From IMG/VR virus record IMGVR_UViG_3300005253_000144, positions 38,175-102,174 of that record: a stretch of DNA of 64,000 nucleotides; one strand, 5' to 3'. The translations under genes and the position numbers were made by a program. This document shows positions 9,800 through 35,976 of this stretch, piece after piece; position 1 is the first letter of the stretch; the number at the start of each line of letters is the position of its first letter. The notes beneath the pieces were generated by a model, which saw only the letters and a list, made by a program, of their open reading frames with translations, ran no database searches and was not told where the DNA came from. The DNA is from a virus.

Positions 9800-9944
9800 A
9801 TTGAATATTTTCTTAGGCCGACAGGACTTGCACCTGTGACCTCCGTGCTTTTGGCAACGGTGCTCTATCAGCGCTACTTACTTGGCCGGGAGCGACCCAT
9901 TCTTTCGGCACCTATCTGAGCTACAGCCTAAGAAAATATTCAAT
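9800..9944 (-). ncRNA. tRNA-like RNA with 52-nt D-loop and extended acceptor stem
   Basis: TAGGCTG-TA-GCTC...GAGC-A-CCGT...ACGG-AGGTC-ACAGG-TGCAAGT-CCTGT-CGGCCTA cloverleaf (9813-9930) inside a perfect 19-bp inverted repeat (9800-9818/9926-9944). Confidence 0.75.
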
Positions 9945-27163: not shown

Positions 27164-28528
27164 CTAATCCCCATCATCAGCGCGGCCGCCCATAATAACA
27201 ACTTGCGGTTCAAGGCGCGCTACCCGATTAATAAGCAGGCCGTCCTGAATCGCCATTACATCTTCAATATCCTTATATGCCTGGATAGTTTCATCTGAGG
27301 CAACGCCATGATAAGAAATATTTTTGTCCTCCATGTGCTTTTTGAATTTTGCCTCGGAGTGCACCCGCTTGGCCTCTGTGCGCGAGTAGGGGCGGCCAGC
27401 ACCATGCGCGGATGAAAATAATGCCTCAGGGTTTCCTAGCCCACTAGTTAAATAACTTGGAGACCCGCTCGTACCGGGGATAAGTCCAATCTCATCCTTA
27501 TGTGCTGGCGTTGCGCCCTTGCGATGGACATAATTGCCCTTTGAGTTCAACCAAGCATAATTATGTCGATTGAAAATCGTCCCGGCTACTTGCAATCCAC
27601 TAGAGCGCGCAAATGTAGAGTGGATAATTTCGTGATTGGCAAGAGCATATTCACCCATAAGCTGCATGACCTCCCAATATTCCTTTCCAGCATCTGTATC
27701 CATACGTAACCAACCATGACCCTTTGGAACATTTCTGGTAGTCGCCTTGGTTTCATTTTCGGCCATCTTTGTATAATGCGTTGCCAATTTATGACCCGTG
27801 CCGCGGCTTCCAGAATGTGTGAGCAGGCCTATCCTTTTTACCCTATGGTCCATAGGCAAAAATTCTGGAGACACATTCGCTCGGATTCGTGAAATAAGAA
27901 CTATATCAGCAAAGTGATTTCCGCCGCCGCTTGTGCCCAACTGCCGATTTGCCAAATATTGCAGGGCTTTAACTTTGGGGGCTATATTCCATTGCTCATT
28001 ATCCATGACAGCATGTTTACGCGGGGAATCAAATTCTAAACCCACACCAAACTTTGTAGATGCTTTTAAATAATCTGCGAACATCTTGCGCCTGCTAATA
28101 AACGCATTTGGTGGGATATCATACACACTTAACATGACCATGCAGGAAATGTCGAAACCGATGTAACCTGGTGAAATCGCGTTTTCCGTTTCGATGACCC
28201 CGCCAATGGGTAGGCCGTAACCTTTGTGGGCGTCCGGCATCAGCGCAGCTCTTATTGCGGGCGGTATCCGCGCGCACACTTCCATTTGGTCATAAGCGTT
28301 TTTAGGAATTAGGGCGCCGACTTTTCCAAATGTTGCGATTGGCACGGGCACATCTCGGTATGCTGGAGAAGTATCCTTTCCGAATTTCTTTTCGACCGCC
28401 TCTAATATCTGTTCCGGGTCATTGCCGAGTTCCCCGGTCAGGCTCGCGGCGTACTTGGCAATTTCAGGATACCCGCGCCGTGAATGATATTCCTTTAGCA
28501 ATTCATGCGTGTTGATTCTTTTTGTCAT
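27164..28528 (-). CDS. rtcB: RtcB RNA 3'-phosphate/5'-OH ligase
   Basis: MPDAHKGYGLPIG, GFDISC, GGGNHF, HSGSRG, HRKGAT, SSAHGAGR. Confidence 0.95.
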   Translation of the reverse strand: MTKRINTHELLKEYHSRRGYPEIAKYAASLTGELGNDPEQILEAVEKKFGKDTSPAYRDVPVPIATFGKVGALIPKNAYDQMEVCARIPPAIRAALMPDAHKGYGLPIGGVIETENAISPGYIGFDISCMVMLSVYDIPPNAFISRRKMFADYLKASTKFGVGLEFDSPRKHAVMDNEQWNIAPKVKALQYLANRQLGTSGGGNHFADIVLISRIRANVSPEFLPMDHRVKRIGLLTHSGSRGTGHKLATHYTKMAENETKATTRNVPKGHGWLRMDTDAGKEYWEVMQLMGEYALANHEIIHSTFARSSGLQVAGTIFNRHNYAWLNSKGNYVHRKGATPAHKDEIGLIPGTSGSPSYLTSGLGNPEALFSSAHGAGRPYSRTEAKRVHSEAKFKKHMEDKNISYHGVASDETIQAYKDIEDVMAIQDGLLINRVARLEPQVVIMGGRADDGD

Positions 28529-28547: not shown

Positions 28548-28985
28548 TTATTCTGTTTTTATTGTTTTTGTACTCTTTTGAATACGATGAATCATATAAT
28601 GTGCTGATTTATAGGTAATGTCTAACATATGGCGCAATTGTTGTGCTGGAATTCCCCTCTTGCTTATATTCATCATATAAATTGCGATTAGCCATTTATT
28701 CATGGGAATATGAGTGTCTTCAAAAAGCGTGCCAATGGTGACTGTGAAGTTCTTGCGGCAAAAACCGCATCGATATACACCAGGCCGAATTCTATTTTTA
28801 TACTTCGTTCCTGGTTTTGATTCTAGTTTCCATGCGCCTCCGGCACTCCCGCATTTTGAGCAGACAATTCCATTAGGCCATCGGATATCCTCAATAATCT
28901 CGCGGGATTCATCTTCTGATAGCTTCGCAATTTTTATTAAGTCAAGATTAATCAGATAGTTCTGTATTTCTTCTATTAGTGTCAT
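28548..28985 (-). mobile_element. IS1595-family transposase N-terminal fragment (Zn ribbon + HTH, no DDE domain)
   Basis: IRWPNGIVCSKCG...YRCGFCRKNFTVTIGTLFEDTHIP..KW...ITYKSA; ORF ends before the catalytic domain. Confidence 0.8.
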
Positions 28986-31201: not shown

Positions 31202-32605
31202 TCATTGGTAAATCCGTCCCCAAGCTTCGTCCAGCTTTTTGGCACTCCATATATTGGGGACATATTCAATGAGCGGCGCATCATGGTAGCTGCTGATGGC
31301 GGCTGTGCCTTCAACCGCATCCAAGTACATTGAAAATCTACCCTCGCCTTCAACGACTAAAATATCTGGTATCTCGGCCGCGTCAAGCACATCCTTATAC
31401 TGCTCCACAAAAGCGGTATCTACTGAAAGCCTTCCAGCACTCAGCAATATTTTTGGGGTTATATCCTGTTCCTTTTCCTCAAAGTCTGCCCCACGCCCAA
31501 CGTTTTTGAATCCGAGTAGCGTGAGTGGCAAGCCATGTTCTTTACATTCTTCGATTACATAAGAAATCTTATCACTATAATGTGCGCCCACAACAAAATG
31601 GGCAACACCGCGCAGACCAAAGGCATCGTTAAGACCGGCTATATTTTTAACATCGTAGTGATTGTCAAGAGAGAGCGCATATGAACCTGCATATTCTCTT
31701 ACAGCTCGCAGGACTTCATGGCTCCATTTATCGGGCCGGATAAAGGTCGTGAAATTTGGGATGATGTCCAATTCTCTCGCCCTTTTAAGGATGGCCGGGA
31801 AATCTGGATGCAGCGTTGGCTCCCCGCCGCCAATGGCAATTTCAAACACGCCGCGCGCAGATAAGACTTCTAAATATGTTTCGATAGTTTCATAATCGGC
31901 ATGGTTGCCAGCAATGGTGCTGTCTTGATAACAGAAAGCACAATTGGCCGGGCAATAGTTGGTTATCTTCAGGTCAACCAATTCCGGAGTCGCCGAGCGT
32001 AGCAATTCATTCGGCTTTTTATCAAAGGATAACCTTAACTTCGCCCCGGTTACTTGATTAAACAATGTCCACCAATGGCCTGATTTCTTGGCAAGATAAT
32101 TACTGCCATCGACCTCTCCCAGCATTCTTAGTTCCCAATCGATGGTATCCCTGGTCTTATGCTCTCCCCATTCATCCGGGTCATCGCCATTATCATTGCC
32201 GCCCAATACCATAATATCTGGGCGTTGGAGATAATCGCGGAAGTCTTTAATAAATGCGGTTGAAAGGCGTTTTGTATATGCATCGCGCGGGAAGCCTAGG
32301 TGAGATTGATGGTCAACATATGCGCCTTCAATTTCTTCAACTTCCATTTTTTTCCCTACCAATTCAGATATGATAACTGCGGCAAGGTCTTCGCCCATTT
32401 CCTTTACGATGGCTTGATAGACTTGGGCTATGAAATAATCCATTTTGGGTCCTGGGTCAGAAAGCACAAAACATTCCCATCCAAATTCATATCCCATATG
32501 TCCAGGATTAGTGGGCAGGGCAGCTTTCCCCTTTGGCAATATAATGATTGAATGGCTGCTAGATGAATTTGTTGCTAAACCGAGTCTAATATTTGCAAGT
32601 TGCAT
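31202..32605 (-). CDS. Radical SAM protein with N-terminal TNSSSSHS domain
   Basis: CPANCAFC cluster motif, GGGEPTLHP; N-terminal RLGLATNSSSSHS. Confidence 0.88.
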   Translation of the reverse strand: MQLANIRLGLATNSSSSHSIIILPKGKAALPTNPGHMGYEFGWECFVLSDPGPKMDYFIAQVYQAIVKEMGEDLAAVIISELVGKKMEVEEIEGAYVDHQSHLGFPRDAYTKRLSTAFIKDFRDYLQRPDIMVLGGNDNGDDPDEWGEHKTRDTIDWELRMLGEVDGSNYLAKKSGHWWTLFNQVTGAKLRLSFDKKPNELLRSATPELVDLKITNYCPANCAFCYQDSTIAGNHADYETIETYLEVLSARGVFEIAIGGGEPTLHPDFPAILKRARELDIIPNFTTFIRPDKWSHEVLRAVREYAGSYALSLDNHYDVKNIAGLNDAFGLRGVAHFVVGAHYSDKISYVIEECKEHGLPLTLLGFKNVGRGADFEEKEQDITPKILLSAGRLSVDTAFVEQYKDVLDAAEIPDILVVEGEGRFSMYLDAVEGTAAISSYHDAPLIEYVPNIWSAKKLDEAWGRIYQ

Positions 32606-32609
32606 AGTT

Positions 32610-32936
32610 TCACCTCATTTGTAGGATTGTCCAGATTGCGATTAAATGGAATGCTTGGTCATCCATTTGTTGAGCATATAGCTTTTCCTCATCATTGCCA
32701 ATTAAACGACTCCACCAATAGCCTAGCCGGAAGCCATCGATAATTGCATGGCTAATCGCAATGAAAAGAATTTGTGCGAGAGAAAATCCCAAGACCACAA
32801 ATGGTAATGATGTAATCAAAACGTGTAGTATTAGGATATAAAATTCCTTCTGTTTTCGTTTCCTCAAATAGGCCGTATTAAATAGCCAGTCCCCAATTAT
32901 GTGTGCGATTAATGCCTTTGAAAACATTGCTTCCAT
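32610..32936 (-). CDS. DUF3307-like membrane protein
   Basis: AHIIGDW, H...SHAIID, DQAFH; start trimmed because the longer ORF runs through tRNA-Asn. Confidence 0.75.
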   Translation of the reverse strand: MEAMFSKALIAHIIGDWLFNTAYLRKRKQKEFYILILHVLITSLPFVVLGFSLAQILFIAISHAIIDGFRLGYWWSRLIGNDEEKLYAQQMDDQAFHLIAIWTILQMR

Positions 32937-32938
32937 AG

Positions 32939-33011
32939 CTGCCACGGAAGGATTTGAACCTTCAACCTCGCGATTAACAGTCGCACGCTCCACCAATTGA
33001 GCTACATGGCA
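32939..33011 (-). tRNA. tRNA-Asn (GUU)
   Basis: Full cloverleaf TGCCATG...CTGTTAA...GGTTCAAATCC...CGTGGCA-G; G73; CCA not encoded. Confidence 0.95.
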
Positions 33012-33012
33012 A

Positions 33013-33180
33013 TGGTGACAGACCGCGACCTCGATTACGGCCAGCACCTCACGAGACGGAGTACGCTACTTTTGAGACCTGTGCTGAATGGCCGCTTCCA
33101 ACACATGGTAGCAATTCCACTGGCGGCCGGGACAGTATAGGAATCTCACTTAAGCCTCACTGGTTTTCCGGCGGCCTGTC
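33013..33180 (-). ncRNA. 168-nt tRNA-like RNA ending in ACCA
   Basis: Terminal stem GACAGGCCGC/GCGGTCTGTC + ACCA; internal arms GGCCGC/GCGGCC and CAGCAC/GTGCTG; exactly fills the tRNA-Met to tRNA-Asn gap. Confidence 0.75.
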
Positions 33181-33182
33181 AA

Positions 33183-33258
33183 TAGCGGAGGCGGGAATCG
33201 AACCCGCGTAGGTCCAGGTTATGAGCCTGGCAAGCAAGCCAACATGCTCAACTCCGCG
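33183..33258 (-). tRNA. tRNA-Met (CAU), initiator-like
   Basis: Cloverleaf with CTCATAA loop, C1xU72 mismatch and A11-U24; anticodon stem CCAGG/CCTGG has only two of the three initiator G-C pairs. Confidence 0.9.
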
Positions 33259-33259
33259 A

Positions 33260-33330
33260 TGTTGAGAGGGCAAGCACATAGGGGTTATGTAAAAATAAAA
33301 ATACTATGTGCCCATTCGTTGGCCCTCTCA
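33260..33330 (-). ncRNA. Small rod-like RNA between tRNA-Pro and tRNA-Met (Y-RNA-like stem)
   Basis: TGAGAGGGC/GCCCTCTCA and GCACATAG/CTATGTGC helices, asymmetric bulge, U-rich apical loop. Confidence 0.55.
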
Positions 33331-33331
33331 G

Positions 33332-33405
33332 TCAGGATGGTAGGATTTGAACCTACGCCCTCCTGGTCCCAAACCAGGCGTTCCACCGGACTGAACTACA
33401 CCCTG
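33332..33405 (-). tRNA. tRNA-Pro (UGG)
   Basis: CAGGGTG...TTTGGGA...GGTTCAAATCC...CATCCTG-A cloverleaf; C1-G72, A73. Confidence 0.95.
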
Positions 33406-33429
33406 AATGTTAGACAAAAGATAGTCTTT

Positions 33430-33696
33430 TTAATTCTCTAGCGAAAGACGGATAATGTACAACTCTTCCTTCATATTCTTTACCTCTTTAACCTGCCTCG
33501 CAATTTTGCCAGCCAAGGGACATAGCTCTGATATAGGCTCTTTTTCACTCCCAGAGGTCGTCGAGGTTAGCTGTATGGATATTGCGTTTTCCAACCGTGT
33601 ACGCAATTCATCAATTGCTGGACGTAACTCAGCCAGTGCATCCTCTAAATATGAAATCTGAGCCGTTACTTGTGATTCTTGTACTGCTTCGTTCAT
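33430..33696 (-). CDS. Small coiled-coil protein inside the RNA cluster
   Basis: 88-aa ORF with AAGGA RBS and heptad pattern. Confidence 0.65.
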   Translation of the reverse strand: MNEAVQESQVTAQISYLEDALAELRPAIDELRTRLENAISIQLTSTTSGSEKEPISELCPLAGKIARQVKEVKNMKEELYIIRLSLEN

Positions 33697-33725
33697 TTTG
33701 ATATCCTTTCAAATAAATTTCGTTT

Positions 33726-33872
33726 AGATACTCAGATGGTGGCGGCAGCCAGGCCTCGCACGGTTTCAACCTGGGTCACTTTCAACATTCGTCTGCCGGC
33801 TATCCTCCCGTGCTCTGGGAGTCTTGATTACTCGTAACGCTTTAGTCGCCTTCCGCCACCACTTGAATATCC
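33726..33872 (-). ncRNA. Structured RNA with tRNA-like 3' end (CCGCC-ACCA)
   Basis: Outer stem GGATATTCA/TGAGTATCT (two G-U pairs on minus strand), inner TGGTGGCGG/CCGCCACCA, CCAGG/CCTGG arm before the acceptor-like strand. Confidence 0.6.
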
Positions 33873-33878
33873 TTCTTA

Positions 33879-34105
33879 TTGGATGCTCACTATGGGCGAG
33901 GAAGGGCTGACACCTATCGCCTTCGCCCATCCTCTCATTCTCTCTGGGCGTTATCCCGCTCTAATCAGGAAAACTTACGTATGCTTTACCGATTGCAGTT
34001 CAAACCCCTGCAACTAGGTAAACAGCCTTGATAGGATTTCCGTTACTAAGGGGCCTCTGTCAGACTAGAGCAACACGCCACTATATGCCCATAGTGAGCA
34101 TCCAA
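33879..34105 (-). ncRNA. 227-nt structured RNA closed by a perfect 19-bp stem
   Basis: ttggatgctcactatgggc (33879-33897) / gcccatagtgagcatccaa (34087-34105); inner helices GCTCTAGTC/GATTAGAGC, TTTACC/GGTAAA, TTGCAG/CTGCAA. Confidence 0.7.
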
Positions 34106-34124
34106 ATGTTAATGTTCTGGGGAG

Positions 34125-34197
34125 ATTGAATATCCAGGAAAGCGGTGGGATGAAATGTTGGCCGCATCCCATCCCGCCGCCGTCTCGGACATTCAAT
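34125..34197 (-). ncRNA. Small structured RNA/hairpin
   Basis: ATTGAATGTCC/GGATATTCAAT 11-bp stem (G-U only on minus strand), inner TGGGATG/CATCCCA. Confidence 0.55.
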
Positions 34198-34201
34198 TTG
34201 T

Positions 34202-34256
34202 GAGGGGGAAGGCCAGCTAACAAAGATTGTAAGTCTAATGCTTAGCCTTCCCCCTC
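34202..34256. ncRNA. 12-bp GC-rich hairpin with structured loop
   Basis: gagggggaaggc/gccttccccctc perfect inverted repeat. Confidence 0.5.
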
Positions 34257-34294
34257 TGTTGTAAACAAGGGCTTCCCTGCCCTTGCATACTGTG

Positions 34295-34456
34295 CGGGTA
34301 TTGTGATTAACGATTGCGCCAATTTCTATACCGATGCTCTATCGACTGAGCTACGGACCCCAATATAAACAAACCATTCTTGATTTGCTTATGGAGGGTC
34401 CAGTGGGACTCAAACCCACGACCTTCGGTTCTCATTGCTGTCGTTTATCACACCCG
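34295..34456 (-). ncRNA. Circularly permuted tRNA-like RNA (YrlA/Y-RNA-type architecture)
   Basis: tRNA 3' half with CCA (34429-34392) precedes a 31-nt hairpin linker and then the 5' half (34360-34330); acceptor GGGTCCG/TGGACCC; anticodon arm replaced by a long terminal duplex. Confidence 0.85.
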
Positions 34457-34519
34457 TGGGTGCTGACGCTATTGGAGTAATACGCTTATCTGATTCTTAA
34501 GCGGAGGCTCACAATAACG

Positions 34520-35275
34520 TTACTCCTTAATTTCTCGGGTCTCGATATAGGCAAACAGCTTTGCGGCCATGCCGATGCTATCAGGTTTTGTTTCGATGTC
34601 ATTGGCACGCTGCCGCGCCTTTTTGACTTCATATAACAAATTGTCAAGGCGCCCCAATCGGTCCCGCTTGTCCACAATGGTTATCATACCGGATTGGCTG
34701 ACGGTTTCCCATTCGCCAACTTTGGCATCCTCGTTGTAGGGTTGTACCTGCGCCGGATGTTCAAGCGTGGCCTCATACAAGACATGGGTTTTCATTTGTT
34801 TCTTCATTCGGTTGGTAATAACCGGGTCAGAAACATAGATACCCTTTTGCTCATCGAAATCCCATTTTTGACCGGGAGGAAGCGTGGGGATGGCTTCATA
34901 AACCCTGCGTAATTCTGCCAGCTTCCCTTCCAGATTCAGCAATGCTGTGGCTGGCAATTCTCCAAGCAGTGGCGTGCCATCAATTAATATCGTGTCCCTA
35001 GCTTCGGTATTGGCAATTTCTTTACCAACCGATACGTCAATCCAGGCACCGACTTGCTCAAAGACGCGCGCCAACTCTGCCTCTACCGTAGTAGCAAGTT
35101 CAGTGTGCTCTTCCGGGTAAGTATCCTCTCCCTCAACAATCAACTGATATTTGCGGAACTGCCCCAAGAAATGGGCTTGTCCCGCATCAAATAATCCCCG
35201 GACCTCATTGATTATTGCTGTCGCCTTACCTCGCAAATCCGGTTCAACCGCTAATAGTTCGTACAACTTTGTCAT
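34520..35275 (-). CDS. Helical 251-aa protein of unknown function embedded in the ncRNA operon
   Basis: AAGGAG RBS; MTKLYELLAVE start, LPATALLNLE, YEATLEHPAQV, VKKARQRAN motifs; I recognise the style as a widespread uncharacterised family but cannot confirm a name. Confidence 0.85.
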   Translation of the reverse strand: MTKLYELLAVEPDLRGKATAIINEVRGLFDAGQAHFLGQFRKYQLIVEGEDTYPEEHTELATTVEAELARVFEQVGAWIDVSVGKEIANTEARDTILIDGTPLLGELPATALLNLEGKLAELRRVYEAIPTLPPGQKWDFDEQKGIYVSDPVITNRMKKQMKTHVLYEATLEHPAQVQPYNEDAKVGEWETVSQSGMITIVDKRDRLGRLDNLLYEVKKARQRANDIETKPDSIGMAAKLFAYIETREIKE

Positions 35276-35295
35276 GCTGAAACTCCTTTCGTTAA

Positions 35296-35400
35296 TTGGG
35301 TGCTCAACTGGTGGCGTGTCGGTTTCTCACCGACGGCAACGCGCTGTTGATATTCACCAATCCGCTATATGCTTTCCGCCGCCACCACCTCAATATCCAA
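35296..35400 (-). ncRNA. Leader RNA with T-arm-like hairpin and CGCC-ACCA end; related to 33726..33872
   Basis: TGGTGGCG/CGCCACCA stem; GTCGG-TGAGAAA-CCGAC 5-bp stem/7-nt loop; sits between the promoter and the ORF RBS. Confidence 0.6.
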
Positions 35401-35411
35401 AGTGAATGACA

Positions 35412-35440
35412 AATATATCACTTACGCTATATATAGTCAA
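35412..35440 (-). promoter_or_regulatory. sigma70-type promoter with TATAGC box heading the ncRNA/tRNA operon
   Basis: TTGACT-ATATATAGCGTAAGTGA (17 nt)-TATATT. Confidence 0.75.
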
Positions 35441-35976
35441 CCCTGATTATCATTAAATATCAACCCCATCCCTATATCTCTATAATTTTCAATAGGATAT
35501 CCGAGGTCTGTTAGCACCCCTGTAAAATAAGCCAACGTATTTGGGTGACAGTAATTCCAGCGGTCGATATTTTTCTTAAGCCATATGCTCATATCCCAGC
35601 CCCCGGTATACTCCCTTGATGCGCCAAGTAAGTCAGCCACCCATTCGCGCACATAGGCTTCCGGCATTGGGACTGCCCCATGTGCCCACTCAAATATCCC
35701 TACGGTAGTCCAGTATTCGGGATGATGCTTATTGTTTTTTTGGTGGTGCATCCATGCTTTGATAAACGCGTCAGGATATTTTTTTCTGCCACCGGGCAAT
35801 TTATAGTTTTTAGCATAATTCACAAATTCGACCGGCATGAACTTTGTCCAATCATGAATCAGTAACCGCCAGAAAGTTATACCCCCAACTATTTTCCATC
35901 CGGCCCAAAACACAAACGCCTTATGCCGGACAGTGCTTAATAAATATTGAATTATTGCTTTTGATATTTCCATCAT
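35437..35976 (-). CDS. HD-like metal-binding protein (DUF5662-like)
   Basis: RHKAFV, LIHDWTKF, AWMHHQKNNKHHPEYW, EWVAD. Confidence 0.75.
   Translation of the reverse strand: MMEISKAIIQYLLSTVRHKAFVFWAGWKIVGGITFWRLLIHDWTKFMPVEFVNYAKNYKLPGGRKKYPDAFIKAWMHHQKNNKHHPEYWTTVGIFEWAHGAVPMPEAYVREWVADLLGASREYTGGWDMSIWLKKNIDRWNYCHPNTLAYFTGVLTDLGYPIENYRDIGMGLIFNDNQG

Follow-up and report, generated by a model that had tools for sequence, protein, structure and literature searches.

The species 1 and 2 RNAs of bacteriophage T4 are small stable RNAs of unknown function that belong to a phage tRNA cluster, and the large ornate RNAs GOLLD and ROOL, roughly 580-800 nt in size, are often located near tRNAs in phages. 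Mobile regulatory cassettes in the form of promoter-stem-loop repeats mediate modular shuffling in T4-type phages. Phage tRNA regions differ by whole modules even between relatives as close as T4 and T2L (PMC2330249). Bacterial Y RNAs (YrlA/YrlB, RF02553) occur in pairs and in tandem with tRNAs, with which they can be co-transcribed, near rsr and rtcB, and are marked by the motif GNCGAAN0-1G (PMC4201824).

The element considered here spans 227 nt (33879-34105) of the window, by which is meant the whole 64-kb stretch of DNA analysed, bases 38175-102174 of a 102,174-base IMG/VR virus record with an estimated completeness of 91%. Like the RNAs of phage tRNA clusters, it is a non-tRNA structured-RNA candidate co-oriented with and adjoining phage tRNA genes, and the window differs from a close relative (contig L085) by whole modules, as T4 does from T2L; unlike those RNAs, it is without homology to any described RNA, is known from sequence alone and lies among modules that share closing-stem sequences. 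As in bacterial Y RNAs, its 5' and 3' ends form a long stem around a structured interior, in tandem with a YrlA-like tRNA mimic and tRNAs and with RtcB nearby, but the phage is without rsr and the element has neither a Ro-binding motif in its 5' strand nor a detected tRNA-like domain. With GOLLD and ROOL the region has in common that it is phage-borne, tRNA-adjacent, multi-helix and non-coding, whereas the element measures 227 nt, matches neither model at E up to 10, and sits in a string of independent hairpin-closed domains rather than one large fold. Short border repeats coincide with whole-module gain and loss, as with the promoter-stem-loop cassettes, except that here it is closing-stem strands that are repeated, and RNAs are among the units shuffled. 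The perfect terminal inverted repeat, the size of about 200 bp, the non-coding interior and the presence/absence polymorphism are reminiscent of MITEs and Correia-type hairpin repeats, from which the element differs in being single copy, in an empty site that keeps 11 nt of one arm and in having no clean target-site duplication.

Genomic setting and fold of the element

Nearly all ORFs of at least 85 aa around the element lie on the minus strand. Its neighbours include genes for a HerA-like ATPase and a DNA methylase, along with the following features.

27164-28528, minus strand: RtcB RNA ligase gene (Pfam E 3.6e-71), 5.4 kb from the element
31202-32605: radical-SAM protein gene
32938-33405, minus strand: tRNA-Asn, tRNA-Met and tRNA-Pro genes
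33430-33696, minus strand: 88-aa ORF, present in the window only and missing in L085
33697-34519 (823 nt): ORF-free gap holding the element, between the DUF7873 gene and the 88-aa ORF
33727-33871, minus strand: CCA1, a 145-nt 'CCA-ended' RNA whose 3' strand ends in CCACCA, with the same type of closing stem as the element
34125-34197, minus strand: upstream hairpin hp1, conserved in L085
34295-34460, minus strand: permuted tRNA mimic (T arm, acceptor-like hairpin, D arm)
34520-35275, minus strand: DUF7873 gene
35296-35402, minus strand: leader RNA
35412-35440: sigma-70-like promoter upstream of the minus-strand operon

The gene adjoining that of RtcB encodes a 145-aa protein (28548-28985, minus strand) whose sole domain is an IS1595-type zinc-ribbon.

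No terminator-like site was found on the minus strand between the DUF7873 gene and the tRNAs, and a search for a promoter of the element's own returned none. The predicted order of the minus-strand operon is promoter, leader RNA, DUF7873, permuted tRNA mimic, hairpins, the 227-nt element, CCA-ended RNA, 88-aa ORF and three tRNAs. Folded as minus-strand RNA, the ORF-free gap forms a chain of separately closed helical domains (z -11.3 vs shuffles), in the order leader hairpin, permuted tRNA mimic, three hairpins, the element and CCA1.

The preliminary description, made from the letters of the sequence, had proposed a perfect 19-bp stem closing a 227-nt RNA, and this was borne out: 33879-33897 and 34087-34105 constitute a 19-nt inverted repeat that is complementary at all 19 positions (100%), with 189 nt between the arms. 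The 64-kb window holds only two perfect inverted repeats of at least 16 nt with arms within 600 nt of each other, the second being at 9800-9944, and the 19-bp inverted repeat is far beyond chance. The parts of the element are as follows.

34087-34105, minus strand: 5' arm of the closing stem, UUGGAUGCUCACUAUGGGC
34095-34105: outer 11 nt of the 5' arm, UUGGAUGCUCA, also found in L085, which is without the element
33879-33897, minus strand: 3' arm of the closing stem, GCCCAUAGUGAGCAUCCAA
33898-34086, minus strand: interior, 189 nt
34075-34079/33947-33951, minus strand: interior helix GGCGU/ACGCC
34063-34071/33958-33966, minus strand: interior helix GCUCUAGUC/GAUUAGAGC
34017-34022/33985-33990, minus strand: interior helix UUUACC/GGUAAA
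34008-34013/33993-33998, minus strand: interior helix UUGCAG/CUGCAA
33898-33934, minus strand: 3' hairpin of the interior
33907-33918, minus strand: GAUAGG-UGUCAG, in the loop of the 3' hairpin, complementary to CCUAUC (34030-34035) and CUGACA (34058-34063)

The whole 227 nt folds at -100.1 kcal/mol on the minus strand (z -7.1 vs shuffles) and at -87.5 kcal/mol on the plus strand (z -6.2). Most of this folding signal can be attributed to the terminal stem, since the 189-nt interior alone is marginal, with z of -2.43 on the minus and -2.21 on the plus strand against shuffles. The helix GCUCUAGUC/GAUUAGAGC includes one G-U pair and is intact on the minus strand alone; this strand is favoured for the element by folding energy and by that pair, and the neighbouring genes and tRNAs lie on it too. 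The helices of the nested domain that had been named are all present on the minus strand. In the minimum-free-energy fold, GGCGU/ACGCC, GCUCUAGUC/GAUUAGAGC and the closing stem are retained, and an alternative takes the place of the two innermost helices. A double pseudoknot had been suggested from the GATAGG-TGTCAG segment; its complements exist, but a 12-mer of which both halves have a perfect 6-nt complement in the interior arose in 352 of 2000 dinucleotide shuffles (18%), and so equal complementarity is expected often enough by chance that the pseudoknot does not count as evidence.

A coding role was considered and rejected, the only ORF on the plus strand being one of 44-50 aa opposite to all neighbours, and the minus strand offering a 20-codon frame without a proper ribosome-binding site. 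Derivation of the interior from the neighbouring CCA RNAs was likewise discarded, local alignment being at chance (p 0.2-0.4), as was an antisense regulator of another genome site, for which only chance 11-12-mers were found.

Searches for known families and further copies were extensive. Rfam returned no match in the element at gathering score, and with E up to 10 and relaxed filters over 32500-35500 there was no ribozyme, group I intron, 6S, GOLLD or ROOL in it; its sole match was TLS-PK6 on the plus strand (19 bits, E 1.4). No tRNA, YrlA or ARAGORN signal lies within 33879-34105. BLASTN of the whole gap, taken as 841 nt, against 50,697 GenBank phages gave no match, and an IMG/VR single-protein search with both flanking proteins found nothing. 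A DUF7873 profile was used to collect about 240 loci (~1.6 Mb) from viral, metagenome and genome collections, in which the element was sought by BLASTN with word size 7 (all loci) and by a covariance model built on it, R1 (L004-L202; L203-L243 were covered by BLASTN only). Among these loci it was found in one other only, L084 (GenBank LAZR01011009), where it is 100% identical. It is single-copy in its own 102-kb genome by BLAST and R1, R1 detected no further copy in 50 complete or partial viral records, and IMG/VR exact-pattern scans with the inner stem plus spacing and with the UUGCAG hairpin gave no match. The interior showed no similarity to anything else found.

A 231-nt unit gained or lost between close relatives

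L085 is a 2,149-nt JGI contig whose DUF7873 protein is 90% identical to that of the window. The two sequences are 88-96% identical on both sides of the element, which is itself missing in L085. The block present in the window and in L084 and missing in L085 occupies 33864-34094 on the minus strand (231 nt), and consists of the remainder of the element, then the spacer UAAGAA, then the 9-mer GGAUAUUCA (33864-33872, minus strand); this 9-mer serves as the 5' strand in the closing stem of CCA1. At the junction, L085 reads ...AACAUUAAUAAUUGGAUGCUCA directly followed by AGCGGUGGCAG..., while the window reads ...AACAUUAACAUUUGGAUGCUCA, then the 231 nt, then AGUGGUGGCGG..., the block itself ending in ...GAGCAUCCAA-UAAGAA-GGAUAUUCA. 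The comparison of these alignable flanks shows that a 231-nt unit has been gained or lost between two phages 88-96% identical here.

The borders of the unit coincide with stem strands. The 9-mer GGAUAUUCA and GGAUGCUCA, inside the element's 5' arm, form an imperfect direct repeat (7/9) and both bound the indel; written as GGATGCTCA and GGATATTCA, the border repeats again match at 7/9 positions, one lying in the left arm and the other 6 nt past the right arm. The 3' strand of hp1, GGAUAUUCAAU, is a repeat of the same motif. In L085, CCA1 has the 11-mer UUGGAUGCUCA for the 5' strand of its stem, and the outer 11 nt of the element's 5' arm, being these same letters, are therefore resident sequence. 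On the other side, a CCA-type RNA located where L085 begins has a 3' stem strand identical to UGAGCAUCCAA, the outer 11 nt of the 3' arm; the equivalent strands in CCA1 and in the leader RNA (35296-35402) are similar to these 11 nt. With the outer 11 bp thus shared, the element consists of its own interior and 8 inner bp, set on the closing stem of a small RNA family.

With two states compared, the event could be a gain in the lineage of the window or a loss in that of L085, and either direction needs one or two more CCA1-stem substitutions, which are seen as compensatory changes. Since it is missing in the closest relative, the element is dispensable and not essential.

Neighbouring RNAs and the DUF7873 context

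It can be seen from the same comparison that the neighbours of the element are conserved in the manner of structured RNAs. The interior of CCA1 is identical over 107 nt between the window and L085 (33722-33876 vs L085:1491-1648), and all 8 substitutions fall in its closing stem, comprising 2 two-sided compensatory, 2 one-sided pair-keeping and 1 disruptive change; this conservation is much stronger than that of the flanking protein gene (90% aa). A covariance model of CCA1 (R2) found the RNA only in the window, L084 and L085, and an IMG/VR exact-pattern scan with a conserved CCA1 22-mer gave no match. The tRNA mimic matches Rfam YrlA at 34332-34427 with 33 bits, below the 69-bit cutoff, and L085 has compensatory swaps at two adjacent pairs of the mimic's acceptor-like stem. 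Over the modules shared by the window and L085, 6 two-sided compensatory, 10 one-sided pair-keeping and 9 disruptive changes were counted, 5 of the 9 disruptive ones being located in one divergent hairpin tip. The substitution pattern of the shared modules is thus that of RNAs whose structure is selected for on the minus strand. With neighbours of this kind, it is reasonable by context to read the element too as an RNA, which is no evidence on the element itself.

At least three further whole-module differences separate the window and L085 within the same 2 kb. L085 alone has an insert of ~114 nt (L085:1286-1399) with imperfect direct repeats on either side and, behind the good ribosome-binding site AAGGUGA, an ORF for a hydrophobic peptide of 33 aa (MFVEMWFALFVFLLGIATGIQIAKWLVKTGWLN). 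The 88-aa ORF of the window, for which there was no Pfam or PHROG match, is part of an indel bounded by the 5-nt microhomology TCTAA, and tRNA-Pro directly adjoins the CCA-ended RNA in L085. A tRNA-Arg(TCT) and two extra hairpin RNAs lie in L085 (L085:1875-2091) between tRNA-Met and the beginning of a 168-nt RNA; in the stretch of the window compared with it (32938-33180), tRNA-Asn(GTT) follows the 168-nt RNA. One of the extra hairpins carries the stem motif GAGAGGG/CCCUCUC, in common with the rod-like RNA between tRNA-Pro and tRNA-Met. The 5' end of L085 holds part of a further CCA-type RNA, and no such module occurs between promoter and leader RNA in the window. The region is a module-swapping hot spot.

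Beyond this lineage, a DUF7873 gene followed within ~250-500 nt by a tRNA on the same strand was found in many unrelated phages and prophages (L008, L011, L020, L022, L025, L027, L028, L244). Directly after the DUF7873 gene of the unrelated phage L048 (L048:4768-5006), an 18-bp perfect stem surrounds a 203-nt interior that contains a YrlA-type permuted tRNA mimic; the right arm of that stem ends exactly at the contig end, so that an assembly effect is possible. In the window, the second 19-bp perfect repeat (9800-9944, minus strand) extends the acceptor stem of a tRNA mimic. From these two cases, long perfect closing stems recur on tRNA-related RNAs here. The repeat at 9800-9944 begins with AUUGAAUAU, the motif at the base of the hairpin at 34125-34197.

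The DUF7873 protein gave a confident AlphaFold model (pLDDT 86). It had no sequence match in the PDB and no Foldseek match, the structural matches being generic helical ones with Z of at most 8.6, and no mention of the family was found in the literature. A recognisable RNA-binding protein was considered for it and set aside, there being no informative sequence or structure match. Ro60/Rsr (TROVE) was sought in the 102-kb genome without a match, the control genomes being matched by the same search. The only Y-RNA motif in the element is GGCGAAG at element positions 179-185, in the 3' hairpin, with ~0.1 expected by chance; GNCGAAN0-1G is not present in the 5' arm (UUGGAUGCUCACUAUGGGC).

Origin of the element and competing explanations

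The explanation that accounts best for these observations, and to which we give a probability of about one half, is that the element is an accessory, lineage-specific and dispensable structured-RNA cassette in a tRNA/tRNA-mimic array, which recombination at shared stem sequences has added or removed and which is probably cut out at its long duplex. The transcript would fold here as a self-contained domain closed by the 19-bp perfect duplex, of which the outer 11 bp correspond to the closing stem of the neighbouring CCA-ended RNAs and the inner 8 bp, with the 189-nt interior, are the element's own. The break falls within the stem strand that is repeated as GGAUGCUCA/GGAUAUUCA, and the unit may have been exchanged when stem sequences repeated in tandem RNA modules recombined or crossed over unequally, in a region where modules seem to be freely swapped. 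Once transcribed, the long duplex could insulate the folds of the neighbours and could be cut by a double-strand-specific RNase of the RNase III type, releasing an RNA of ~190 nt that the phage lineage can do without. An uninterrupted perfect duplex of 19 bp is present, as for a candidate RNase III processing stem; weighing against this, RNase III substrates have their lower size limit at about this length. It also counts against the cassette reading that a perfect Watson-Crick stem of 19 bp without wobble is equally expected from a recent event at the DNA level.

The main rival is to read the element as a non-functional by-product, a recombination scar or passenger DNA left by illegitimate or template-switch recombination in a hyperplastic region, with the perfect stem reflecting recent origin and not selection. 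Presence and absence between close relatives, the interior z of only -2.4, a stem that is perfect where the older neighbouring stems have mismatches and G-U pairs, other local indels bounded by microhomology (TCUAA, for example) and the want of a homologue in the searched loci, viral records, IMG/VR pattern scans and GenBank phages all agree with it. We nevertheless consider it rather unlikely, in view of a 3' arm that precisely complements 11 resident nt and so rebuilds the family closing stem, which is unexpected for random passenger DNA, and of the seamless fit of the element in a chain of closed RNA domains whose other members are under structural selection. The arrival from the host of a MITE-like non-autonomous transposon, bounded by 19-bp terminal inverted repeats, would explain the perfect repeats on 227 bp without an ORF, the absence from a close relative and the short direct repeat at the borders. 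The 'empty' site of L085, however, already has the outer 11 nt of the left arm, so that the repeat is not wholly inserted DNA, and the border repeats match at 7/9 and are offset from the arms, with no clean target-site duplication; this pattern is not what cut-and-paste transposition of an element ending in its inverted repeats would leave. Border repeats of the kind that would mark a MITE thus exist, albeit imperfect and offset, but dispersed copies were not found, the element being single copy in the 102-kb genome and otherwise absent from the ~240 loci (its identical counterpart in L084 apart), the 50 viral records and the two IMG/VR pattern scans. No transposase is adjacent, the only transposase-like signal being the Zn-ribbon domain 5 kb away, and since the closing stem shares its outer 11 bp with that of the adjacent family of CCA-ended RNAs, the element is not a classical MITE; a mobile origin of this type is improbable.

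Two further readings were weighed. A compact RNA with a double pseudoknot, either a ribozyme or a large orphan ncRNA of defined tertiary fold, had been put forward in the preliminary description, and the complementary segments, the overall fold far more stable than shuffles and an RtcB encoded 5.4 kb away are compatible with it, the RNA ligase RtcB joining the kind of ends that self-cleaving ribozymes leave. The case did not hold up under analysis, since the complementarity is at chance (18% of shuffles), the terminal stem gives most of the stability, the interior is barely beyond shuffles, and no Rfam family, self-cleaving ribozymes included, was matched even at E up to 10; moreover, the single further copy, in L084, shows no difference, and L085 does without the element. 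The ribozyme-like interpretation is therefore unsupported, and a defined tertiary fold of this sort is very improbable. What stands of that description is its RNA-level reading, which is reasonable given the transcribed strand, the chain of closed domains and the compensatory changes in the neighbours. The remaining possibility, a Y-RNA-like partner of the YrlA-like mimic, with DUF7873 or a host protein of the Ro60/Rsr type binding to the element's terminal stem, draws on the YrlA-like module 190 nt upstream (33 bits, cutoff 69), on the pairing of Y RNAs in tandem with tRNAs near rsr and rtcB, and on the GGCGAAG match. It is highly doubtful, as the 102-kb genome has no TROVE/Rsr gene, the motif lies in the 3' hairpin and not in the 5' stem strand, with ~0.1 occurrences expected by chance, no tRNA-like or YrlA signal is found inside the element, and DUF7873 is without a recognisable RNA-binding fold.

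A broader proposal that goes beyond the accessory-cassette reading, and that we regard as a long shot, is a phage system in which diverse structured RNAs are packaged in a common closing stem (UUGGAUNNUNA/UNANNAUCYAA), cut from the tRNA/tRNA-mimic precursor and made to act with the RtcB ligase or the DUF7873 protein, for instance in end-joining or circularisation, the shared stem being both processing signal and recombination handle for swapping RNA cargos. If this were true, the element would be one cargo of a previously undescribed phage system.

Taken alone, the element is an orphan that lengthens the list of unexplained structured-RNA candidates among the accessory RNAs of phage tRNA clusters, and it is not a priority target, being dispensable and its ribozyme-like reading unsupported. 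The useful result concerns origin: at nucleotide resolution, whole RNA modules of this array are seen to come or go at the closing-stem sequences that they share. Selection has left its marks, compensatory changes in stems and an interior invariant over 107 nt, on the neighbouring RNAs and not on the element. Overall, the array is more interesting than the element, with its invariant CCA-ended RNA, its permuted tRNA mimic and its link to DUF7873 and RtcB.
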